This document shows, piece by piece, positions 4,793 through 64,000 of a stretch of 64,000 nucleotides of DNA. Source of the stretch: Minisyncoccota bacterium (GTDB taxonomy: Bacteria; Patescibacteriota; Minisyncoccia; Phycocordibacterales; UBA9973). Positions within the stretch are counted from its first letter, which is position 1. The number at the start of each line of letters is the position of its first letter. Position numbers and translations under genes: made by a program. The stretch spans positions 740 to 64,739 of the forward strand of contig JBAZRK010000002.1 of NCBI GenBank assembly GCA_041663005.1, given 5' to 3'. The notes under the pieces were generated by a model. It had not been told where the DNA came from and did not search any database. It saw nothing but the letters and a program-made list of their open reading frames with translations.

Positions 4793-7210
4793 CTAGTAGA
4801 CCAATGCCTGGATTTTTTCTTTAGTTTTCGGACCCACAATTCCATCTGAAACTAAACCATTTCCTATTTGCCATTTTTCTACTTCTGCTTCAGTTTTAGG
4901 GCCAAATTTACCATCAACTGACAAAGTCGCATGGACAGTATCGTTTAGATAATTTTGCAAATCTTCAACTGCCGGACCTAGGCTACCTCGCCTTAAGGTT
5001 CTCGATCCTAAATTATAAGTTTTCTGGTTTTGGGATACTATTGTGTCAGCTGTCACGCTGGCGTTGTCGGCGGCAGCTTTCGCGACGTCAGGTTGGTCGG
5101 AATTATCAAACCCACCTGCTGGTTTAGCCCCGACTGTCACAGTAGCTTGTGCCGAGCAAGCCTCTACTCCCCCAATCTTACCATAGACTCGGCAAGTGGT
5201 TGTCTTGGTCAAATTAGGAATTGTGTAAGGCGTTGTAGGTTCAGCTGAAATTTGAGTTTCTCCCGCACCACAATCGCCGTAAGTTTGCCCTAGGTCTGCG
5301 CCGACTACTTTCCAGGTTTCAGTGACTGAGCCACCATAAGGAATGGCCGTGGTGTTGAAAGTGAGGAAAGCGCTACAACTACCGGGCGGTGGCGTAGGAG
5401 TGTAGTTGAACAAAGGATTAGTGTTTGCTCCACCCGCTAAGCTTAAGTCTAGTTTGTATACTAGGAATCTTTGTTCCCGCTGCATGCCCAATATCAAGTA
5501 GCCCCCTTGGGTTACCGTAATACTATTAAGTGAATCATTGGTCGAATATGGTAAAGCAAGCTCATCTATTTTCTGCCCATCTTTCCATAATATTATACTG
5601 GAACTATATGTCGTAATAATTGCTCCTCCGGAACTCTTATAAGAGCCATTCGGTACTTGGCCTACAAATAAGACATAGTCCCCCCAGACCGCAAAATACC
5701 TGGCTTGTTTACGAAATGTCGGTCCAGCAACTTCTTTCTTTGTTCCCTCAGGTATATTAATAGTTTTATCCAGAACAATATCGTTTGTTGTCGCTCGAAA
5801 TATATTCACCTTAGCTGGACCCTTGCCACCAAATGAATCTGTCGTAAATTCCCAGGAAGCCAAACGCGGTGGCCAAACAGAATTATCAAATGTATATACT
5901 GCGCTACCTTTTACTGGTAAATTTTTTAGAAGAGTCCTAGAACCACCTGCAGAAACCTTGTATGCGCTCCAAGTTTCTCCTTTGGCACTAATCCAGAAAT
6001 CGCCGAAACCAAAATTGTTTAAATTCTCTCCATTTACATTTCCTTCAACCTTGTCCCAGCCACCTACGGTTCCAAGCTTGTTCCAGTCAGGCAAGCCTAA
6101 TAACCTCCCTTCTCGAGTTATCAGTCGATCTTTAAGTACCACATTTGTAAAGTCAGAGCCGTTTCCGAGTGTGGATATTGAAGATACGCTCAATTCACCA
6201 GCATCGTCTATATCGTAATATACCGAGTAGTTGATACCTCCAGGATAATATTCTGCGCAATCTCCCGGTTCTCCACTGGGGCCAGGATTTGAGCACGCCA
6301 TACCAGCAGCTTCATCTACTGATCTTATGGGATGAACAAAAGATCCCAAATCACTAGCCCAATTAATCAAAATCTCCGATGCAATTAATCCCCCCATGTG
6401 ACCCATGCTCCATGCTCCACTACTAGAATCATCACAACCATCTCTTGAAGAAAGAATAGCTGAACCATCTTCTTTCATTACCCACAGATTGGGCGAGAGA
6501 ATACAATTACCACCTATCACCATCTTGTCTTTCATACCTGCAACACTGGTAATATAAAAAGAGGAGTGATCTTTTGGATTTGCCTTTAGTCCTTCTTTGA
6601 TAAATTTAATTTTTCCGTTAGTGGAAGAAGGAGTTGCGGAAGTTATTGGCGGAGGAACATAAGCAGCGGGCTTTGTTTTAACTTTAAAATTAACGTAGCC
6701 ATCTTCGGTGCAAGCTGTGCCTTTATATGTGTAGTTGGCCTTTATTCTGACTTTCGTTTCGCCCACAGAGCTCGGTGTTCCTGCTGCATATACACGCAAC
6801 CATGGTCCTTTTGAAGAAACTCCTGGCGCAGCATAGCTAGTAATTTCTCTACCGTAAGTCAATTCTTTAGTCTTAAATGCGCTTATGCCGGCGGGAAGCG
6901 GATCAACTGCGGAAACCGTAATGGTTCCAAAAACTGAAACTGGCAAAAGTCCGCCCGGATCCGTAAGGTTAGAATCCGAATCCCAGCTACTGCCATAACT
7001 TTGGCCAGCGTATAGAGAAAGGCTATGGGTATTGGTATAAGCCAATGTGCCTGGTGCTTCGTCCGAAAAATAGCCCAGCACGCTAGAACAATCCGAAGAA
7101 CCAATGTCGCGAACTGCTCTGCCTTTAGCTGAGACATTACTAAAACTAGCCGACAAGAGGAGCAGTGCTAAGAGGCTCCATCCTGCGACCTTAAAGAATA
7201 TTTTTTTCAT
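4793..7210 (-). CDS. Large secreted surface protein with C-terminal peptidoglycan-binding domain
   Basis: Signal peptide. C-terminal ...LQNYLNDTVHATLSVDGKFGPKTEAEVEKWQIGNGLVSDGIVGPKTKEKI. 805 aa. Confidence 0.7.
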   Translation of the reverse strand: MKKIFFKVAGWSLLALLLLSASFSNVSAKGRAVRDIGSSDCSSVLGYFSDEAPGTLAYTNTHSLSLYAGQSYGSSWDSDSNLTDPGGLLPVSVFGTITVSAVDPLPAGISAFKTKELTYGREITSYAAPGVSSKGPWLRVYAAGTPSSVGETKVRIKANYTYKGTACTEDGYVNFKVKTKPAAYVPPPITSATPSSTNGKIKFIKEGLKANPKDHSSFYITSVAGMKDKMVIGGNCILSPNLWVMKEDGSAILSSRDGCDDSSSGAWSMGHMGGLIASEILINWASDLGSFVHPIRSVDEAAGMACSNPGPSGEPGDCAEYYPGGINYSVYYDIDDAGELSVSSISTLGNGSDFTNVVLKDRLITREGRLLGLPDWNKLGTVGGWDKVEGNVNGENLNNFGFGDFWISAKGETWSAYKVSAGGSRTLLKNLPVKGSAVYTFDNSVWPPRLASWEFTTDSFGGKGPAKVNIFRATTNDIVLDKTINIPEGTKKEVAGPTFRKQARYFAVWGDYVLFVGQVPNGSYKSSGGAIITTYSSSIILWKDGQKIDELALPYSTNDSLNSITVTQGGYLILGMQREQRFLVYKLDLSLAGGANTNPLFNYTPTPPPGSCSAFLTFNTTAIPYGGSVTETWKVVGADLGQTYGDCGAGETQISAEPTTPYTIPNLTKTTTCRVYGKIGGVEACSAQATVTVGAKPAGGFDNSDQPDVAKAAADNASVTADTIVSQNQKTYNLGSRTLRRGSLGPAVEDLQNYLNDTVHATLSVDGKFGPKTEAEVEKWQIGNGLVSDGIVGPKTKEKIQALVY

Positions 7211-7285
7211 AGGTAAATTATACTACCTCTCCGGTATTTCGCAATCCGTAAGTATTAATATTTACCTTCACTAAATATGCTTATT

Positions 7286-10259: not shown

Positions 10260-11897
10260 TTAGTGCTGGTAGAAGCCTCGGGCCTCGGTGTCTGGTAGGA
10301 GGATTAAATTAACGCCGCGAGATTTGCAAAGCTCAATAACTTTTTCGTCGTTGACGGAGCCACTCGTCGAGAAAATTGTTTTAATTCCGCGATTTATGAG
10401 TACCTCTGGCGCATCCGGGAATGGGAAGAAGCTATCACTATAAGCTACGGCATTTTCTAAATCTGCCGGAAATTCGGACGTTGGACGTCCGAATTCTTGA
10501 CGTCCAACGTCCGAATTCTGGGAAAATCTCGCCGCATCATCGGCGCGAAGCAAGGCAAGCTTAGCTGCACCTACCCTGTCTTGCTGGCCAACGCCATTGC
10601 CATACAGTCGGCCATCTTTCACTATAGTTATAGTATTACTATTAGAAGTACTACCAACAGCCCAGGCTAAAATAACATCCTTTTCTTTTACCTCAGGCAC
10701 AAATGTATAGTTGGGTTGAACCATAAATCCTCCACGCACATATCGGAATCGCTTCGCTCCGTCGAGTGCCGACATCCCCGCTTTAGCTATCGCCCTGTTT
10801 TGTAAGAGTCTGCATTTACCTTTTTTGCGGGAAAGAATTTCTATTGCCTCAGGGGAGAATTCTGGTGCAGCAACGATGTCGAGCAAACGTCGCACACCTT
10901 CAGGCGAAAATTTATGAATTAGTTCGTCGGCAATTTTTTCATCCACAGGAAAATTAAGCATCACTGACCCGCCAAAAATTGCGCGCAGGTCCCCCTGAAG
11001 CATTCCATCGATAGCTTCTATATCGCTTGACCCCGTAGCCACACCGCAGGCGTTCCCGTGCTTGGCGCCGATGGCAACGAACGGAACTTCTCCCAGATTT
11101 TTCTCGAACCCCGCGCCGATGTGTGTCATTGTCTGCATCATTCTATCTACGTCACAAATGTTGTTGTAGCTCATCGGGCTTCCAGCCACGAGTTGCCAGT
11201 TCGCAATTGCAAGTTCGTCCACATTTTTAGTATCTAAATTTTTATACAAACTCGCTGGCTTCTGGTAGGCGTTCTCTCCGTACGCGCATTCGATATTCTT
11301 CTGCCCGAAAATTCCCTTGTACCCTTCCGCACTATGATACTCGCCGGAAATCGCGCCGTATCGCGCAATTATCATTTCCGCTTTTGCTGCTAAATTATTT
11401 AGAAATTCTTCACGATTTTCTTCACCGTCCTTGAGCCACTTTACCACCAGCGCCCGGTCCGAAACATCGCACACAGTTATGCGCCTGCCCTTGGCGCTGG
11501 CTCGGAGCATTGTGGGTCCGCCGATGTCGGTTTTCTCAATAACAGACTCGCGCGTAGCGTTCGGGTTTTTCGTTTCTTCCTCAAGCGGATACAAATCCAC
11601 GCACACAAGGTCAATCCAAGGAATTCCATATTTCTCAAGTTCGACGCGGTGCTCGGGAGTATCGAGTGCGAGCAATCCGCCGTGAATTTTCGGATTAAGA
11701 GTGAGGACTCGGTGCGAGAGAATCGGCGGCATTCCGGTAATTTCTGCGACGTCTGTCACCGGCAGGCCCGCCTCTGACAAGTGCTTCGCAGTGCCTCCGG
11801 AGGAAATTATTTTCCACCCCAGGCCCACCAACTCTTTGGCGAAATCGGCAATACCGTCTTTGTTATATACAGAAATTAATGCAGTTTTTTGGTTCAT
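10260..11897 (-). CDS. purH: Bifunctional AICAR formyltransferase / IMP cyclohydrolase PurH, carrying an in-frame repeat insertion
   Basis: N-terminal MGS-like/IMPCH domain and C-terminal AICARFT motifs (GIGAKHGNACG..., YSDSFFPFPD, C-terminal ...GFYQH). A 16-aa insert NSDVGRQEFGRPTSEF is encoded by 1.5 tandem REP copies. Confidence 0.93.
   Translation of the reverse strand: MNQKTALISVYNKDGIADFAKELVGLGWKIISSGGTAKHLSEAGLPVTDVAEITGMPPILSHRVLTLNPKIHGGLLALDTPEHRVELEKYGIPWIDLVCVDLYPLEEETKNPNATRESVIEKTDIGGPTMLRASAKGRRITVCDVSDRALVVKWLKDGEENREEFLNNLAAKAEMIIARYGAISGEYHSAEGYKGIFGQKNIECAYGENAYQKPASLYKNLDTKNVDELAIANWQLVAGSPMSYNNICDVDRMMQTMTHIGAGFEKNLGEVPFVAIGAKHGNACGVATGSSDIEAIDGMLQGDLRAIFGGSVMLNFPVDEKIADELIHKFSPEGVRRLLDIVAAPEFSPEAIEILSRKKGKCRLLQNRAIAKAGMSALDGAKRFRYVRGGFMVQPNYTFVPEVKEKDVILAWAVGSTSNSNTITIVKDGRLYGNGVGQQDRVGAAKLALLRADDAARFSQNSDVGRQEFGRPTSEFPADLENAVAYSDSFFPFPDAPEVLINRGIKTIFSTSGSVNDEKVIELCKSRGVNLILLPDTEARGFYQH
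10471..10518. repeat. REP-like palindromic repeat, 1.5 tandem copies, in frame inside purH
   Basis: AATTCGGACGTTGGACGTCCGAATTCTTGACGTCCAACGTCCGAATT. Core is 9-bp inverted arms TTCGGACGT/ACGTCCGAA. Confidence 0.85.
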
Positions 11898-17337: not shown

Positions 17338-17402
17338 AATTAATTATTGCATCCAGGCGCTAGTAAATAAAGTCTTGTATCCTCGAACCTGTGGAAAACT
17401 CA

Positions 17403-18101
17403 TCATTCGGACGTTGGACGTCCGAATGTGGGCGATGGGTCATCCTCGATATTTTCAAGGCCCCTCTCTGCGCGAACAAACGAAACAACGTTTAAACATT
17501 CTTTTTTATAATTTTCATTGCCTCCATAAAACTCGAGGACCTCTCCTGCTTCTTTCTCGCTAACTAGTATGAAATTTTTAGTATCGTATTCTTTTTCGCT
17601 AGACAAGACCAGGTGCATTCTTTCCTTTGGTATATTGTGAACCATATAATTAACATGCACGTAAGGACGAATTTTTAAAAAATAGGGCTCGTCGTCTATT
17701 AACTGTGATTTAAATCGCCCCTGGAACAAAGCACCGGTCCTGCTGTGTACCAGATTGAAGTATTTTGTATAACCTCCGAGCAAACGTTTGAAAAACTCGG
17801 AGATTCCGCCATCCACCTCCTGCTTTAAAATAAAATGAAAGTGGTTGGGGTTAAAGCAGTATGCAACAATAGACACCAGCGGATTCGGACGTCCAACGTC
17901 CGAATCCGCTGGTTTTTTGTGTTTTTTATCTTTAATGCTCCCTATCGGCACAACTGAGTTGAACTCTTTTGCGCTTAGGGCAAAACGGTCTAAGTCTTTC
18001 TTGCTGGAAAAAATATCCCGCTTATCCACACCCCTGTTGTAGATATGATAATACTCCCTGGTTACGAGAGGGTCTTTCCTCATATCTATATTATAAAGCA
18101 A
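17403..18101 (-). CDS. IS200-like HuH Y1 transposase, probable REP-associated tyrosine transposase (RAYT)
   Basis: YYHIYNRGVDKRDIF (COG1943/RayT-type N-terminus), HuH motif HFHFIL, GALFQGRF, and a C-terminal Tyr-bearing segment RPYVHVNYMVHNIPKE. Flanked by inverted REP copies. One REP is in frame internally (ADSDVGRPNP) and another forms the C-terminus and stop (FGRPTSE*). Confidence 0.7.
   Translation of the reverse strand: MLYNIDMRKDPLVTREYYHIYNRGVDKRDIFSSKKDLDRFALSAKEFNSVVPIGSIKDKKHKKPADSDVGRPNPLVSIVAYCFNPNHFHFILKQEVDGGISEFFKRLLGGYTKYFNLVHSRTGALFQGRFKSQLIDDEPYFLKIRPYVHVNYMVHNIPKERMHLVLSSEKEYDTKNFILVSEKEAGEVLEFYGGNENYKKECLNVVSFVRAERGLENIEDDPSPTFGRPTSE
17405..17427. repeat. REP copy (loop TTGGA) at the 3' end of the RAYT gene
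   Basis: ATTCGGACGTTGGACGTCCGAAT. Confidence 0.85.
17881..17907. repeat. REP copy inside the RAYT coding sequence
   Basis: GGATTCGGACGTCCAACGTCCGAATCC, a 27-nt perfect palindrome. Confidence 0.85.
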
Positions 18102-18119
18102 TTCGGACGTCCAACGTCC

Positions 18120-18144
18120 GAATTAAGCAACTTGGGTGTGGAAA
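18120..18144. repeat. REP copy immediately upstream of the RAYT start
   Basis: AATTCGGACGTCCAACGTCCGAATT. Confidence 0.85.
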
Positions 18145-18166
18145 ACTCCCCATTCGGACGTTGGAC

Positions 18167-18196
18167 GTCCGAATGTTAGCGGGAGCGACGAGAGTC
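18167..18196. repeat. REP copy (extended CCCCATTCGG...CCGAATG)
   Basis: Opposite loop orientation (TTGGA). Overlaps the 3' end of CDS 18176..18517. Confidence 0.85.
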
Positions 18197-18517
18197 GCGG
18201 CTGCGATGAGAACTTCGGGGTTGATAATCGTAATAGTTATAACTATCGTAACGGAAGTATTCGAAGCTACTGTCTTCCCAGACGTAAGGATTGTAGCCAG
18301 TGACGCGAGCTACAGGATAACGGTCGTAATTGTTACGACCATAATAGTCATAAGAATACCCAGTAACGTAAGCGTCGTTCCTGTAATAATTATTTCTACT
18401 ATAAGTATAGTAACTGTCCTCATAGTATGCCACGGCAGAGCTCGCCCCAGTTGCCACAAGCAATAACATAATAAGCACTAGTGTAAAAATTTTCCTCATA
18501 GTATATCTGCCTTGCAA
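18176..18517 (-). CDS. Small secreted Tyr/Asn/Arg-rich low-complexity protein
   Basis: Signal peptide MRKIFTLVLIMLLLVATGASSAVA, then YY..Y..NNYYRN... low complexity. Flanked by REPs. Confidence 0.4.
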   Translation of the reverse strand: MQGRYTMRKIFTLVLIMLLLVATGASSAVAYYEDSYYTYSRNNYYRNDAYVTGYSYDYYGRNNYDRYPVARVTGYNPYVWEDSSFEYFRYDSYNYYDYQPRSSHRSRDSRRSR

Positions 18518-18583: not shown

Positions 18584-18778
18584 CTACGGGCGGTAGCCGT
18601 TTAGGAGGAGGATGACGAGGAGAATAACGAGAAAAAGGAGGGTCATATCGAACCAGTCGATCATAATCCCGTGCTTGGCCAGATGCTTCTTGAGCAACTT
18701 GTAGCCTTCGTTTATGACGAGGCCGGGAAAAATTATGATGGCAAACCATATTTTCATTACTATCTCCCACATATCCAC
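18584..18778 (-). CDS. Small two-TM membrane protein
   Basis: 64 aa with two hydrophobic helices. Sits between two REPs. Confidence 0.35.
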   Translation of the reverse strand: MDMWEIVMKIWFAIIIFPGLVINEGYKLLKKHLAKHGIMIDWFDMTLLFLVILLVILLLNGYRP

Positions 18779-18850: not shown

Positions 18851-18936
18851 CCCCATTCGGACGTCCAACGTCCGAATGGGGGTGATTTTTTGAGTTGAGG
18901 TAAAACAAAAAAACCACCCGTGAGGGGTGGTTTTTT
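18851..18936 (-). repeat. Composite ~90-bp repeat A: 31-nt perfect-palindrome REP (CCCCATTCGGACGTCCAACGTCCGAATGGGG) plus terminator CCACCCGTGAGGGGTGG-T6
   Basis: Direct repeat of 19576..19666 at about 85% identity. Acts as the terminator for the TA-like operon above it. Confidence 0.8.
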
Positions 18937-18940
18937 GAAG

Positions 18941-19177
18941 CTAGGCCATTAGAGGAGTACTGGAACTTATATTTATAGGAATCCCGTTTTTCAAATTTTC
19001 CTGAAGAGCGAGACCTTGCTTAGAAGAAGCATCTAAGAGCTCCATACCCACGACGTCTCCAGCAGAAGAAAGATCTACGACCAATCTGTCGTCTACCTTT
19101 ACTGATTTGGCAATTTTTTCACCATTTTTAATAGTGAAATAAATTGCATCTGCTACTGTATCATAATCTATTTTCAT
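18941..19177 (-). CDS. DUF2283-family small protein, antitoxin-like partner
   Basis: MKIDYDTVADAIYFTI...VDLSSAGDVVGMELLDAS matches the DUF2283 pattern (MKI.YD...D.LYI...G.ivGIEiL.AS). Confidence 0.75.
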   Translation of the reverse strand: MKIDYDTVADAIYFTIKNGEKIAKSVKVDDRLVVDLSSAGDVVGMELLDASSKQGLALQENLKNGIPINISSSTPLMA

Positions 19178-19182
19178 AATTT

Positions 19183-19416
19183 TTATTCTAAATAATAAGC
19201 GGTTATAATTAAATATTCATCTCCTTTGTCTTTAAACGCTTCTTTATAGTATATAACTTCTATCGTCTTCTCACCAACATTTTTCGAAACCTTGACTCTT
19301 TCTGCGAAAGTCTCTTCTTGCGTATCAGGATTTCGGAGAGTCTGCTTAATATGATCCAAGTTTATTCCTCGGCAAGAAATCATATCCTGCACATGTCGGG
19401 TGAGCTTAAGCTTCAT
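19183..19416 (-). CDS. DUF4258-family small protein, toxin-like partner
   Basis: MKLKLTRHVQDMISCRGINLDHIKQTL...EYLIITAYY matches DUF4258 (H...RM.ERGI....I....). 5-nt gap to the DUF2283 gene, so operonic. Confidence 0.75.
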   Translation of the reverse strand: MKLKLTRHVQDMISCRGINLDHIKQTLRNPDTQEETFAERVKVSKNVGEKTIEVIYYKEAFKDKGDEYLIITAYYLE

Positions 19417-19575
19417 TTAAGTAATTATACTACCTTTAGCTCCTAATCAATAGACGCTGTGCATACATATTCCTTACAGCTGATATCTGCTCATAATACT
19501 GATTTTGGATCTATTGTCAACCAGGGAAGAGAGCGCCCCCGGGCGGGTGAAGATGGAAAAAAAGGGGGTCAAAAA

Positions 19576-19666
19576 CCCCATTCGGACGTCCAACGTCCGA
19601 ATGGGGTGGTTTTGAGGGCTGGGGGGAGAAAACAAAAAGCCACCCGGTGAGGGGTGGCTTTTTTTA
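19576..19666 (-). repeat. Composite ~90-bp repeat B (REP plus terminator GCCACCCGGTGAGGGGTGGC-T7)
   Basis: Second copy of the composite module. Terminator for CDS 19711..21429. Confidence 0.8.
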
Positions 19667-19710
19667 CCTCGCCCACAAGTCCGACTTGTGGGAATGAGGA
19701 GTTAGCTGAT

Positions 19711-21429
19711 TTACTGCATCGCAGCTTTCGAACGAGACATTGGACCTAGGAACCCGTCGGCTACAAGACCCATAGAGCCCTGCCATTTCTTGGCAGCAGC
19801 AATAGTGAGCTTGCCACACCAACCGTCAGTAACTAGTCCAGCGTTTGACTTAGCATTCAAGAACATCTGCCAAGCTCGGCAAGCTTCGCCTTTCGTTCCC
19901 ATTTTTACTGTCAGGGTTCCGAAGGCATAGCCTTGTGCGTTTGGAGATGCTGGAGTTCCCGGTGCAACTGTCGGCACTGCAGGAGTAGCTGGAGTTGCTT
20001 TCTTAGTCCTGCTTCCGCCACCGCCACCGCCACCGCCAGAAACAGTTGTGATTTGGTAATTACTTGAGTCTGTGGTTCCCACTGGGGCGTTTGGTGAAAT
20101 TGCCCCATCAGTCCAGCCAGTCCCCACAGTAATTACATTCACTAAATCAGTTACATCCGCAGTGGGAGTAAAGGTAGCTGTTTGAGCTGTTGGAGTTGAA
20201 GCATCTATTGTCCCTAGTGTTCCATTTGGAACTGTCACATCGGCTGAAGTAAAGCCAGTTGGCGCTTCAGAGAAAGTAAACGTAATAAGAGCTGTTTCTC
20301 CTATGTCAATAGCATAATCTGAAAGCGTTACAGCTACAGTAGGTGCAACTGCGTCTGCAGCATCCACCGTAGAAGCATTGGCAAGCTCTCTACTTGCTAT
20401 GTCCATGGTGGTACCTGTGGCAGAAGCATAAGTGACAGCGGGAGTAGAAGAATATGAAGTTAATCCTGTTGTGGTAAGGGTCATCGTCGTTCCCGTATCT
20501 GCGGGATCTGTGTTTGCTGTGACTGTGGCACCAGCAACTGTCCAGCCCTCTCCTGCTGTTGTAGTCGTATCCATAGGCTCACTGAAGGTAAGCACGATGG
20601 TGTTCAATGCTGTTCGAGAAGCGCTTAACAATATTGGATTGATCCCGTCGGTCCAAATAAGTTGGTCCTGGTCTGCATTACCATCTTGATCTTGGCTATT
20701 ATTGCCGCTTGCGTCCAACAACGAAAAATCATTCTGGGCAGTTATGTCAAGCGTTCCTAGAGTGTCGTAAGTAGCCACAACAGAAGCTTCCGTACCTAGC
20801 GGAACCCAGGTAGCAGAAACGGTCCCTCCGATAAGGTCACTGGCATCTGCCCCAATTACCGCTCCTGTAAAACTACCAACAACATTTAAGAGCAAGTCAT
20901 TTGCCGACAAAAAAGAACCCACGGTAACTTGCTCAGTATAAATAACATCGAGTCTGTCCATCTTGCCATCATCATCTGCATCCTGATAGGTAATGCTTCT
21001 GATTTGAGGCTTGGCAAGGTCTGTAGGAGAACCAGATTTATCGGTCATATTTCCGCTAGTAAGAGTGACACTGTTGGCTGTCCCTGCAGCCTGAGTATAA
21101 GTAATCGTAGGAGCTACCGTACCTCCGGTAATTCCTGCACTTGCTGTGACAGTGATTGCGATTTCATTCAAAGTAGCACAGGTGACACCCGTTATGGCGG
21201 TGATGCCTATGTCGCCTGCTACTGTCACTGCCCAGTCCCCTGCTTCGTAAGGACAAAGAAGAGGGTCTTCATCCATAACCCACACAACTGTATCTACGGT
21301 ACCGTCCAAGTTCACATCTCTATATGTAGAGCTAGAAAGGGTGTTCGCAGCATCCACGTTTGCAGGTAGTAGAAAAACTACACCCGCAAGCACAAAAAGG
21401 AATCCTAATATTCTATTTAGTTTCTTCAT
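19711..21429 (-). CDS. Secreted Thr/Ala/Gly-rich surface protein with C-terminal PG-binding domain
   Basis: Signal peptide. GGGGGGGGS linker, encoded by the (CCGCCA)n run at 19990..20040. C-terminal ...GEACRAWQMFLNAKSNAGLVTDGWCGKLTIAAAKKWQGSMGLVADGFLGPMS. Confidence 0.7.
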   Translation of the reverse strand: MKKLNRILGFLFVLAGVVFLLPANVDAANTLSSSTYRDVNLDGTVDTVVWVMDEDPLLCPYEAGDWAVTVAGDIGITAITGVTCATLNEIAITVTASAGITGGTVAPTITYTQAAGTANSVTLTSGNMTDKSGSPTDLAKPQIRSITYQDADDDGKMDRLDVIYTEQVTVGSFLSANDLLLNVVGSFTGAVIGADASDLIGGTVSATWVPLGTEASVVATYDTLGTLDITAQNDFSLLDASGNNSQDQDGNADQDQLIWTDGINPILLSASRTALNTIVLTFSEPMDTTTTAGEGWTVAGATVTANTDPADTGTTMTLTTTGLTSYSSTPAVTYASATGTTMDIASRELANASTVDAADAVAPTVAVTLSDYAIDIGETALITFTFSEAPTGFTSADVTVPNGTLGTIDASTPTAQTATFTPTADVTDLVNVITVGTGWTDGAISPNAPVGTTDSSNYQITTVSGGGGGGGGSRTKKATPATPAVPTVAPGTPASPNAQGYAFGTLTVKMGTKGEACRAWQMFLNAKSNAGLVTDGWCGKLTIAAAKKWQGSMGLVADGFLGPMSRSKAAMQ

Positions 21430-29926: not shown

Positions 29927-29996
29927 AGACGTCGGACAACAGGAATTCTAGTTGTCCGACGTCTCTTCGTTTTTCACGGACGTCCAACGTCCGAAA
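29927..29996. terminator. efp terminator hairpin AGACGTCGGACAAC...GTTGTCCGACGTCT followed by a partial REP (CGGACGTCCAACGTCCGAAA)
   Basis: Perfect 14-bp stem. REP-related arms (GACGTCGGAC). Lies between the convergent efp and rpsR genes. Confidence 0.6.
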
Positions 29997-63900: not shown

Positions 63901-64000
63901 TTATTTGACTTCTTCGCTGACAAAGGACGGAGCCGGCGTCGGAATGTCGATGATGCGTGTATACGACACGATGTCGGGATAACCTGAGCCGGCGGTTACC
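63901..64000 (-). CDS. C-terminal fragment of an unidentified gene (continues beyond the window end)
   Basis: Minus-strand frame reads ...VTAGSGYPDIVSYTRIIDIPTPAPSFVSEEVK*, followed by the terminator. Confidence 0.25.
   Translation of the reverse strand, partial: VTAGSGYPDIVSYTRIIDIPTPAPSFVSEEVK

Follow-up and report, generated by a model that had tools for sequence, protein, structure and literature searches.

The locus of interest lies in a 64,000-nt stretch of DNA (hereafter, the window) from contig JBAZRK010000002.1 of a Candidatus Paceibacterota genome. Here, a two-gene operon encoding DUF4258 and DUF2283 proteins—a putative toxin-antitoxin (TA) pair—is flanked by two modules, each consisting of a repetitive extragenic palindromic (REP) hairpin and an intrinsic terminator, and is followed by a gene for a REP-associated tyrosine transposase (RAYT). 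A first-pass annotation read this arrangement as a cassette duplicated or mobilised together with its terminator module. We arrive, with middling confidence, at a different reading: the region is a RAYT-centred REP cluster into which a separate DUF4258-DUF2283 cassette has been inserted.

Two REP and terminator modules flank the gene pair

All genes across 14–24 kb of the window are carried by the minus strand. In order of transcription, the features of the flanked operon are:

19711–21429, minus: Big_12 surface-protein gene, the first unit in transcription order
19672–19692, minus: an extra, private hairpin (CCCACAAGTCGGACTTGTGGG) that adjoins the stop codon of Big_12 on its 3' side, outside the repeat
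19629–19666: T_B, the bidirectional intrinsic terminator ending the Big_12 gene (A-run, stem GCCACCC/GGGTGGC, T-run)
19576–19606: REP_B, a 31-nt extended REP hairpin (14-bp stem, CCA loop), then the tail TGGTTTTGAG
19493–19520, minus: sigma70-like promoter of the TA operon, TTGACA-16-TATTAT (11 of 12 matches)
19183–19416, minus: gene for the DUF4258 protein, 77 aa, a putative BECR-fold RNase toxin
18941–19177, minus: gene for the DUF2283/YuzE-like protein, 78 aa, a putative antitoxin
18902–18936: T_A, a terminator acting in both directions, 4 nt past the stop codon of DUF2283
18851–18881: REP_A, a 31-nt extended REP hairpin, then the tail GTGATTTTTTGAG

The two modules (18851–18936 and 19576–19666) are 86–91 nt in length, lie in direct orientation and are 83% identical over 90 nt (blastn); the flanks outside them are unrelated. 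Each module is made up of three pieces: (i) a REP element of ~45 nt, (ii) 7–12 unalignable bases, and (iii) a terminator, with a gap between REP and terminator of 32 nt in one module and 33 nt in the other. The 31-nt element, CCCCATTCGGACGTCCAACGTCCGAATGGGG, is present in both modules with 31/31 identity. It was first described as a perfect palindrome; both copies do form a 31-nt hairpin, but one that consists of a 14-bp stem and a 3-nt CCA loop. The terminators T_A (AAAACAAAAAAACCACCCGTGAGGGGTGGTTTTTT) and T_B (AAAACAAAAAGCCACCCGGTGAGGGGTGGCTTTTTTT) match at 33 of 36 aligned positions, with a local alignment score of 48 (maximum of 22 in 2000 shuffles). The repeated hairpin and terminator modules and their direct orientation are confirmed. 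To call the modules near-identical is an overstatement: the spacer between the two elements, taken alone, shows no significant similarity (387 of 5000 shuffles reach its score). Both terminators are called terminator-like on both strands, and have the properties of intrinsic, bidirectional terminators. Folding of either strand gives the expected hairpins, REP and terminator alike, in both modules; those of the terminators (z −5.8 to −8.0) include the A/U extension.

Each of the two building blocks is repeated elsewhere. The 21-nt REP core occurs nine times in the window, compared with 0.00 expected (100 shuffles). Seven of the nine copies fall within 17.4–19.6 kb, where each intergenic gap holds one or two; outside this cluster are one doublet inside purH and one degenerate copy after efp, and none is found in the 9.7 kb past the right end of the window. 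The ~45-nt REP element comprises the hairpin and a GTTTT/AAAAC tail, the same tail that is carried by the REPs flanking RAYT. All five REPs of the CATTCGG subtype lie 0–12 nt past a stop codon or terminator. Indeed, every gene in the interval has a REP after it, and the earlier notion that the gene pair is specially bracketed does not hold. Loop orientation (CCA vs TGG) was considered as a definition of REP polarity, and was dropped because orthologous REPs differ in this respect.

The terminators belong to a clade-wide, bidirectional family with the form A-run/CCACC(C)/loop/(G)GGTGG/T-run (i.e., AAAACAAAAAA-CCACCC-loop-GGGTGG-TTTTTTGTTTT). CCACC-type terminators occur after unrelated genes in six genomes: the window and—using L-numbers for loci from the other genomes and assemblies compared with it—L003 (~1033), L010 (7150–7176), L018 (2350–2385), L024 (163–198) and L037 (~2385–2420). 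T_A and T_B each score 53 against the L024 terminator, and T_A scores 44 against that of L018. The L024 stem-loop differs from that of T_B at only 1 of 18 positions, though it follows an unrelated gene in another genome. Similarity across genomes is thus as high as within the genome, which removes half of the duplication signal. The possibility that the CCACCC family is a DNA-uptake sequence was rejected, as CCACCC is not over-represented (27 occurrences vs about 21 expected).

These observations point—as an evenly balanced judgement—to modules that are 3'-end punctuation (terminator plus REP) of two consecutive, co-oriented units. Their appearance as direct repeats would come from the blocks, each of which is a repeated family, and from the shared orientation of the two genes. 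Independent assembly of the two modules agrees with (i) the general rule of REP placement, (ii) the unalignable middle, and (iii) terminators that need not be paralogues. The near-equal distance between REP and terminator follows from the same rule, since subtype REPs generally sit 0–12 nt past a stop codon or terminator. That this spacing reflects targeting of REPs to terminators was considered and set aside: the corresponding gap in L010 is 31 nt, but its spacer is non-homologous and its REP is found on the opposite side of the AAAC-rich arm of the terminator.

REP hairpins and the RAYT gene

The RAYT gene and the features between it and REP_A are, in order of transcription:

18584–18778, minus: gene for a two-transmembrane-segment (2TM) peptide of 57–64 aa, kept beside RAYT in L005 and L028
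18555–18579: REP copy, 5 nt past the stop codon of the 2TM gene
18176–18499, minus: putative Tyr-rich open reading frame (ORF) with a signal-peptide-like N-terminus
18099–18175: inverted REP doublet upstream of RAYT (18101–18123 and 18152–18174, 28 nt apart)
18137–18147: TGTGGAAAACT motif within the inverted-doublet stretch
17403–18083, minus: gene for a RAYT-like Y1 (HUH) transposase, 226 aa
17875–17913: in-frame REP within the RAYT ORF (..ADSDVGRPNP..), its stem 18 bp long; conserved in relatives
17390–17428: TGTGGAAAACT motif (17390–17400) and a REP over the RAYT stop codon (17404–17428)

The last of these segments is a 91% direct repeat of 18137–18181, and an LCAT-domain gene comes after RAYT. 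The Tyr-rich ORF has no homologue in relatives, and the ENA gene caller chose an antisense Ile/Val-rich ORF (18173–18466, plus) in its place, so that the Tyr-rich ORF is a doubtful gene.

The palindrome, which the first-pass annotation had called a REP, is the REP of the adjacent RAYT. Cognate REPs flank RAYT on both sides in the window and in eight relative loci (L003, L005, L010, L016, L024/25, L026, L027 and L028). In all eight, the presence of a RAYT homologue is accompanied both by REP flanks and by an internal REP whose codon position does not differ between them. The RAYT protein carries HFH (in ..NPNHFHFIL..) and the motif ..RPYVHVNY... It scores 23.4 bits against Pfam Y1_Tnp (gathering score 23) and 24.1 bits against NCBIfam REP_Tyr_transpos (under the cut-off of 80), and comparison with solved RAYT structures gave no match. 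Of its 3273 homologues, nearly all are from Paceibacterota/Nomurabacteria metagenome-assembled genomes, and some are named REP element-mobilizing transposase RayT by JGI.

The REP inside the RAYT ORF lies before the HUH strand, in a loop, and its position is shared by every relative examined (L005 3838–3878, L010 6219–6259, L026 ~6171–6209; also L027, L028 and L024/25). Its stem extension varies by compensation (GCGG/CCGC vs GAGG/CCTC vs GGGG/CCCC). Across eight sequences of this hairpin, 92% of cells are paired and two pairs show compensatory changes, with a covariation score reached by 1 of 500 shuffles. The internal hairpin may be an autoregulatory or attenuator element.

In every relative, a conserved motif that resembles a DnaA box, TGTGGAWAAYT (reverse complement TTATCCACA or TTTTCCACA), stands on either side of RAYT, 4–8 nt away from the outer REP (window 17390–17400 and 18137–18147; L005 ~3558 and ~4358; L010 ~5737 and ~6553; L026 ~5897 and ~6682; L028; L003). 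Given this constant position, a DnaA box or origin was set aside; the motif would more likely be part of a RAYT end, recognition or guide sequence.

In the window, in L010 and in L028, RAYT keeps its place upstream of rplJ-rplL-purH, at a distance of a few kb. In L016, RAYT and its REPs (5975–6696) are instead located directly after efp. The same place in the window holds only the degenerate REP CACGGACGTCCAACGTCCGAA (29975–29995), pointing to the relocation or loss of a RAYT unit at some time in the past. A second gene of the Y1_Tnp family (246 aa, weak Pfam match) lies beside the trigger factor gene in the same genome, ~10 kb past position 64000 (L031 1–169), and the 9.7 kb next to it show no REP of the family described here.

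Beyond the window, the exact REP core occurs in 15 loci of species-representative genomes, all from Patescibacteria, with 1–6 exact copies per genome. The tens to hundreds of extragenic copies expected of a REP-RAYT system are not seen in the window and the adjoining 9.7 kb, and several of the copies are intragenic. A metagenome scan with a 25-nt REP returned only L024 and L025, neither from the source species.

Some REPs lie in frame within other genes. The window's purH ORF (10260–11897) holds an in-frame REP doublet at 10471–10517, and in-frame doublets or singlets of ~45–48 nt are found in at least seven other long, housekeeping-type ORFs of other Patescibacteria (L002 404–451, L007 7534–7574, L008 909–952, L009 2216–2259, L011 252–294, L013 4825–4871, L014 1238 and L015 1971–2012). 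The encoded peptides recur (e.g., SDVGRPN-FGRPTSE). Palindromic repeats in frame within the protein genes of a reduced genome recall the Rickettsia palindromic elements, reportedly described by Ogata et al. in 2000; those belong to another sequence family, whereas the repeats here are RAYT-linked, and the modules around the gene pair are themselves intergenic.

The 17.3–19.7 kb interval had also been called a repeat-mediated hotspot, and comparison of the relatives bears this out: all eight keep RAYT and its REPs, and differ in the small genes upstream. The gene upstream of RAYT in relatives encodes a surface protein that shares a C-terminal PG_binding domain with Big_12. The gap between this gene and RAYT contains:

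L005: 2TM peptide
L010: HicA/HicB pair
L025: TPR protein
L026: 160-aa ORF
L027: nothing
L028: 2TM peptide and 61-aa ORF

Further support for a hotspot comes from sister strains L024 and L025. Their RAYT segments are 99.7% identical, and 611 nt—most of the TPR gene and one REP—are absent from L024 (L024 161–400 vs L025 690–1541), with the junction exactly at the foot of the remaining REP. REP feet are therefore real rearrangement breakpoints, and a TA cassette could plausibly serve to stabilise such a region.

The DUF4258-DUF2283 cassette

The DUF4258 and DUF2283 genes are encoded in that order, 5 nt apart. The DUF2283 protein scores 43.5 bits against its Pfam family (gathering score 23). The DUF4258 protein scores 24.0 bits, just under the gathering score of 25, and its homologues carry PF14076. 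The promoter (19520–19493, minus), just upstream of DUF4258, is the best sigma70-like site in 20 kb scanned. The pair has a GC content of 36.1%, compared with 44.0 ± 3.9% for the window (lowest 3% of windows); the values for the homologous L018 cassette are 38.8% vs 49%.

Searches found 16 homologues of DUF4258 and 59 of DUF2283. The toxin-first pair recurs in L018 (after a gene for a 585-aa membrane-type protein; 74–76% identity), L019 (after rplU) and L022 (after an ATP-cone gene). A TA-like two-gene unit, as first annotated, is supported by this distribution: the same two adjacent, co-oriented small genes, 5–11 nt apart, are kept together in at least three unrelated contexts besides the window. 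A fifth neighbourhood, L037 (1669–2355), contains a DUF2283 gene (82% identical) 51 nt past the 3' end of tmRNA, with DUF4258 reduced to its last five codons (TAYYL*). Here, at a classical hotspot of integration, the putative antitoxin gene stands as an orphan, a classic form of TA decay. The spread of the pair is, then, patchy and independent of context.

What the two proteins do is suggested by models and family assignments. The AlphaFold2 model of DUF4258 has a predicted local distance difference test (pLDDT) score of 90.5 and the topology beta-alpha-alpha-beta4. Among aligned homologues R16, H22, K24, D31, K45, Y56, E59 and a TAYY C-terminus are invariant, and H8 is present in at least 90%. 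Two independent surveys place DUF4258 in the BECR RNase superfamily: one lists it among BECR-fold TA toxin families, with target unknown and no reference (Gerdes 2025, PMC11980606), and the other places it in the colicin-like BECR branch, overlapping Ntox49 (2026 preprint, bioRxiv 10.64898/2026.08.28.747851). The model topology and the invariant His, Arg, Lys, Tyr and Glu residues fit this placement. The DUF2283 model (pLDDT 79) contains five strands as well as a helix, and its tail is disordered. The best match among solved structures, chain C of the EF-Tu/CdiA/CdiI complex 7vmc, is a weak one (E 0.04, template modelling score 0.54), and hints, but does no more than hint, at an immunity-type binder. 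No DNA-binding domain, helix-turn-helix (HTH) or ribbon-helix-helix (RHH) is recognisable in it. From these models and family assignments, DUF4258 would likely act as an RNase toxin, and the DUF2283 protein, encoded downstream, would neutralise it by binding to it directly.

An alternative that we think unlikely is that the pair has some other small-protein function—for example, as an orphan immunity-type pair—and that the repeats play a transcriptional role only. The DUF4258 score below the gathering threshold, the lack of PADLOC and NCBIfam matches, the absence of a significant solved structural relative, the DUF2283 protein with no recognisable DNA-binding domain, and the persistence of DUF2283 alone in L037 would all sit comfortably with this. 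Nevertheless, the tight two-gene architecture conserved across unrelated loci, the patchy distribution, the two BECR assignments and the truncated toxin gene beside the L037 orphan argue for a TA pair. A role in a defence system was discarded, given the lack of PADLOC matches.

DUF4258 and DUF2283 are absent from all eight relative RAYT loci (0/8 in the synteny comparison that the first-pass annotation had called for), which keep the same REPs. This absence, together with the variable content of the gap upstream of RAYT, indicates that the pair is a lineage-specific insertion. It is not one that carries REPs with it: no REP-like sequence is present in the loci of the homologous cassettes (L018, L019, L022 and L037), so the REPs are not part of the mobile unit. 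What these four cassettes do carry is the promoter, a CCACC terminator or both. The DNA homology shared by the window and L018 starts with the −35 box (the two boxes align) and stops at the terminator, with none beyond. CCACC-type terminators follow the cassettes in both L018 and L037, and hence T_A is native to the cassette. Against this background, the claim that the cassette was mobilised with its terminator module is not supported: homologous cassettes exist without REPs, and T_A and T_B match each other less well than either matches L024.

No second copy of the REP-TA-REP arrangement is found in the window, the 9.7-kb extension or any locus compared, and exact-protein look-ups of DUF4258, RAYT and Big_12 returned the source genome only. 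Short-read contigs L017 and L036 end inside REP_A or REP_B, so that presence and absence of the cassette cannot be compared within the species. A different TA family occupies the equivalent position in L010, where a HicA/HicB operon (6569–7225) beside RAYT has a REP on one side (6569) and, on the other, a CCACC terminator (7150–7176) and a REP-like hairpin (7205), 31 nt apart; the contig ends there. The L010 spacer between terminator and REP is not homologous to those of the window.

Gene content also varies at the far end of the window. L032 1–1618 (a strain from SRR6484324) is identical up to window position 64000, past which a GIY-YIG gene and a 165-aa ORF take the place of the 904-aa gene of L031.

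Origin of the arrangement and comparison with known systems

How might the arrangement have come about? We propose that RAYT, as a Y1/HUH enzyme acting on single-stranded DNA, has over time placed copies of the ~45-nt element just downstream of each transcription unit in the 2.3 kb that precede its own gene. These units are those of Big_12, the TA pair, the 2TM peptide and the Tyr-rich ORF, together with that of RAYT. The DUF4258-DUF2283 pair would be a self-contained accessory cassette (AT-rich, with its own promoter, the putative toxin gene first, and its own CCACC-type bidirectional terminator). It would have been acquired in the window's lineage alone, at a site with the surface-protein gene on one side and the gene for the 2TM peptide on the other. 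The 3' end of each unit would thus come to consist of a terminator of the clade-wide family and, 7–12 nt on, a REP element. Transcription would end at the terminators whichever way it ran; to this the REP hairpins may add RNA 3'-end stability and further insulation. If DUF4258 is indeed a BECR-fold RNase neutralised by DUF2283 binding, then loss of this recombination-prone region would be costly.

Several observations weigh against this reading. Firstly, REP_A and REP_B are mutually closest, being the sole carriers of the full CCCC...GGGG extension, and they share their orientation, a TTTTGAG tail and a near-equal terminator distance (32 vs 33 nt); taken together with 83% identity over 90 nt, these features are explained equally well by a single ~90-bp duplication. 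Secondly, the RAYT protein is marginal to the profiles (24 bits vs a cut-off of 80; 23.4 vs 23), such that its transposase activity is inferred, and the copy number of REPs is very low for a REP/RAYT system. Finally, DUF4258 is a putative toxin, by family assignment (PMC11980606), and a Foldseek search of its model against the PDB gave no match at E ≤ 0.001.

The strongest competing explanation follows from the first of these points. A REP and terminator unit of 86–91 nt may have been duplicated in one step, at the entry of the TA pair: a circular molecule carrying the TA genes and one module would integrate (Campbell type, by homologous or REP-directed recombination) at a resident module downstream of Big_12, leaving direct repeats resembling attL and attR, between which recombination could loop the cassette out. 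We regard this as possible, though doubtful. The modules are collinear, the identical 31-nt extended palindrome is unique to the two copies, the distances between REP and terminator agree to within one nucleotide, and the repeat ends coincide with the hairpin feet; the L024/L025 deletion ends exactly at such a foot, and the L010 HicAB operon is likewise bounded by a REP and by a CCACC terminator with REP. On the other hand, the composite module must already have existed both at the donor cassette and at the 3' end of Big_12, the middle 7–12 nt cannot be aligned and the spacer similarity is not significant. The likeness of the terminators carries no weight, since those of other genomes are equally similar, cassettes elsewhere lack REPs, and the L010 spacer is not homologous. 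An empty site or a circle is beyond the reach of short-read contigs, which break at REPs. As for the second module by itself, one ~90-bp duplication and assembly on two occasions are about equally likely; the duplication is possible but not required.

A cassette mobilised by RAYT itself—akin to an IS200/IS605-like composite, or to an HUH version of an integron cassette—seems improbable. REP_B and REP_A would serve as left- and right-end hairpins, and the TA, 2TM and Tyr-rich units would have moved as single-stranded circles. Co-oriented small genes, each followed by a hairpin and situated beside a transposase acting on single-stranded DNA, do invite this idea; REP_A and REP_B have the same orientation, arrays of this sort typically carry TA cassettes, and a second TA family (HicAB) is REP-bounded near the L010 RAYT. 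Yet no REP-bounded unit has a second copy in the window, its 9.7-kb extension or the loci compared, as would be expected of a composite or IS200/IS605-type element. In neither L005 nor L028 do REPs bound the 2TM gene on both sides. The TA pair brings a promoter of its own, homologues of the pair are mobile in the absence of REPs, and "direct orientation" is weakly defined where loop orientation flips between orthologous positions. RAYTs, moreover, are generally seen as domesticated, single-copy genes that mobilise REPs/REPINs only (PMC5581495). Mobilisation of the TA cassette by the flanking modules is, overall, not established.

The more specific proposal that REP hairpins are attC-like single-strand sites, and that the TA pair, the 2TM gene, the Tyr-rich ORF and the L010 HicAB operon are cassettes shuffled by the HUH transposase, is very improbable; if true, it would amount to an HUH-based integron analogue in ultra-small genomes, with the REP and terminator module as cassette boundary. 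Vibrio superintegrons contain toxin-antitoxin cassettes in chromosomal integron arrays. The window resembles these in having a TA unit among co-oriented small cassettes, with hairpin repeats between them and a recombinase acting on single-stranded DNA beside them, and a stabilising role against repeat-mediated deletion is plausible in both. However, no IntI, attI/attC or promoterless cassettes are found: the recombinase is of the HUH type, the cassettes have promoters, the REP is not attC, and the 2TM gene is not repeat-bounded in relatives.

Returning to the RAYT-centred cluster with a separately inserted cassette, none of its parts is new in kind: it combines a REP-RAYT system with intrinsic terminators and a TA-like cassette of type II. 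Work on REP-RAYT systems has dealt almost wholly with Proteobacteria, in which REPs are abundant and extragenic. As in the Proteobacterial systems (E. coli TnpA_REP and the Pseudomonas REPINs), a putative Y1/HUH gene has copies of a short, GC-rich hairpin on its flanks, with others elsewhere in the genome; it is syntenic in the window, L010 and L028, and an inverted REP doublet lies beside it (18101–18174). Unlike in those systems, there are only nine copies per 74 kb, seven of them within 2.2 kb of RAYT and mostly singlets; a REP lies in frame in the RAYT ORF, doublets lie in housekeeping genes, and the protein is marginal to curated RAYT models. In E. coli, REPs and bacterial interspersed mosaic elements at the 3' ends of operons are mRNA 3' stabilisers, often near terminators. 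The hairpin repeats here are similarly placed, immediately past the stop codons or terminators of co-oriented genes, but differ in lying ~32 nt from a specific CCACCC terminator family. The cassette shares with toxin-first type II TA systems with BECR toxins (HigBA, BrnTA, HicAB-like) its small paired genes, own promoter, patchy occurrence, low GC content and assignment of its putative toxin family (DUF4258/Ntox49) to the BECR superfamily. It differs in its DUF2283/YuzE-like partner of five beta strands and a helix, with no recognisable HTH or RHH, and in its gene order: DUF4258 modules are listed as antitoxin-first (Gerdes 2025), and here the toxin gene comes first.

What is unusual is a low-copy REP that is concentrated near RAYT, placed beside a conserved terminator family, kept in the RAYT ORF and present in frame in housekeeping genes. 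A full-text literature search for RAYT/REP elements in the candidate phyla radiation/Patescibacteria returned nothing relevant. The RAYT system of Paceibacteria is widespread and behaves differently, with few copies around the transposase, one inside its ORF and others in housekeeping genes. The gap beside RAYT gathers accessory cassettes, and two distinct TA families are among them, each in a different genome. The locus thereby offers a tractable case for studying the role of RAYT, the part that repeats play in shaping variable regions of reduced genomes, and TA cassettes as stabilisers. More generally, direct repeats built from two independently repeated elements—here, a REP and a family terminator—can mimic cassette boundaries.

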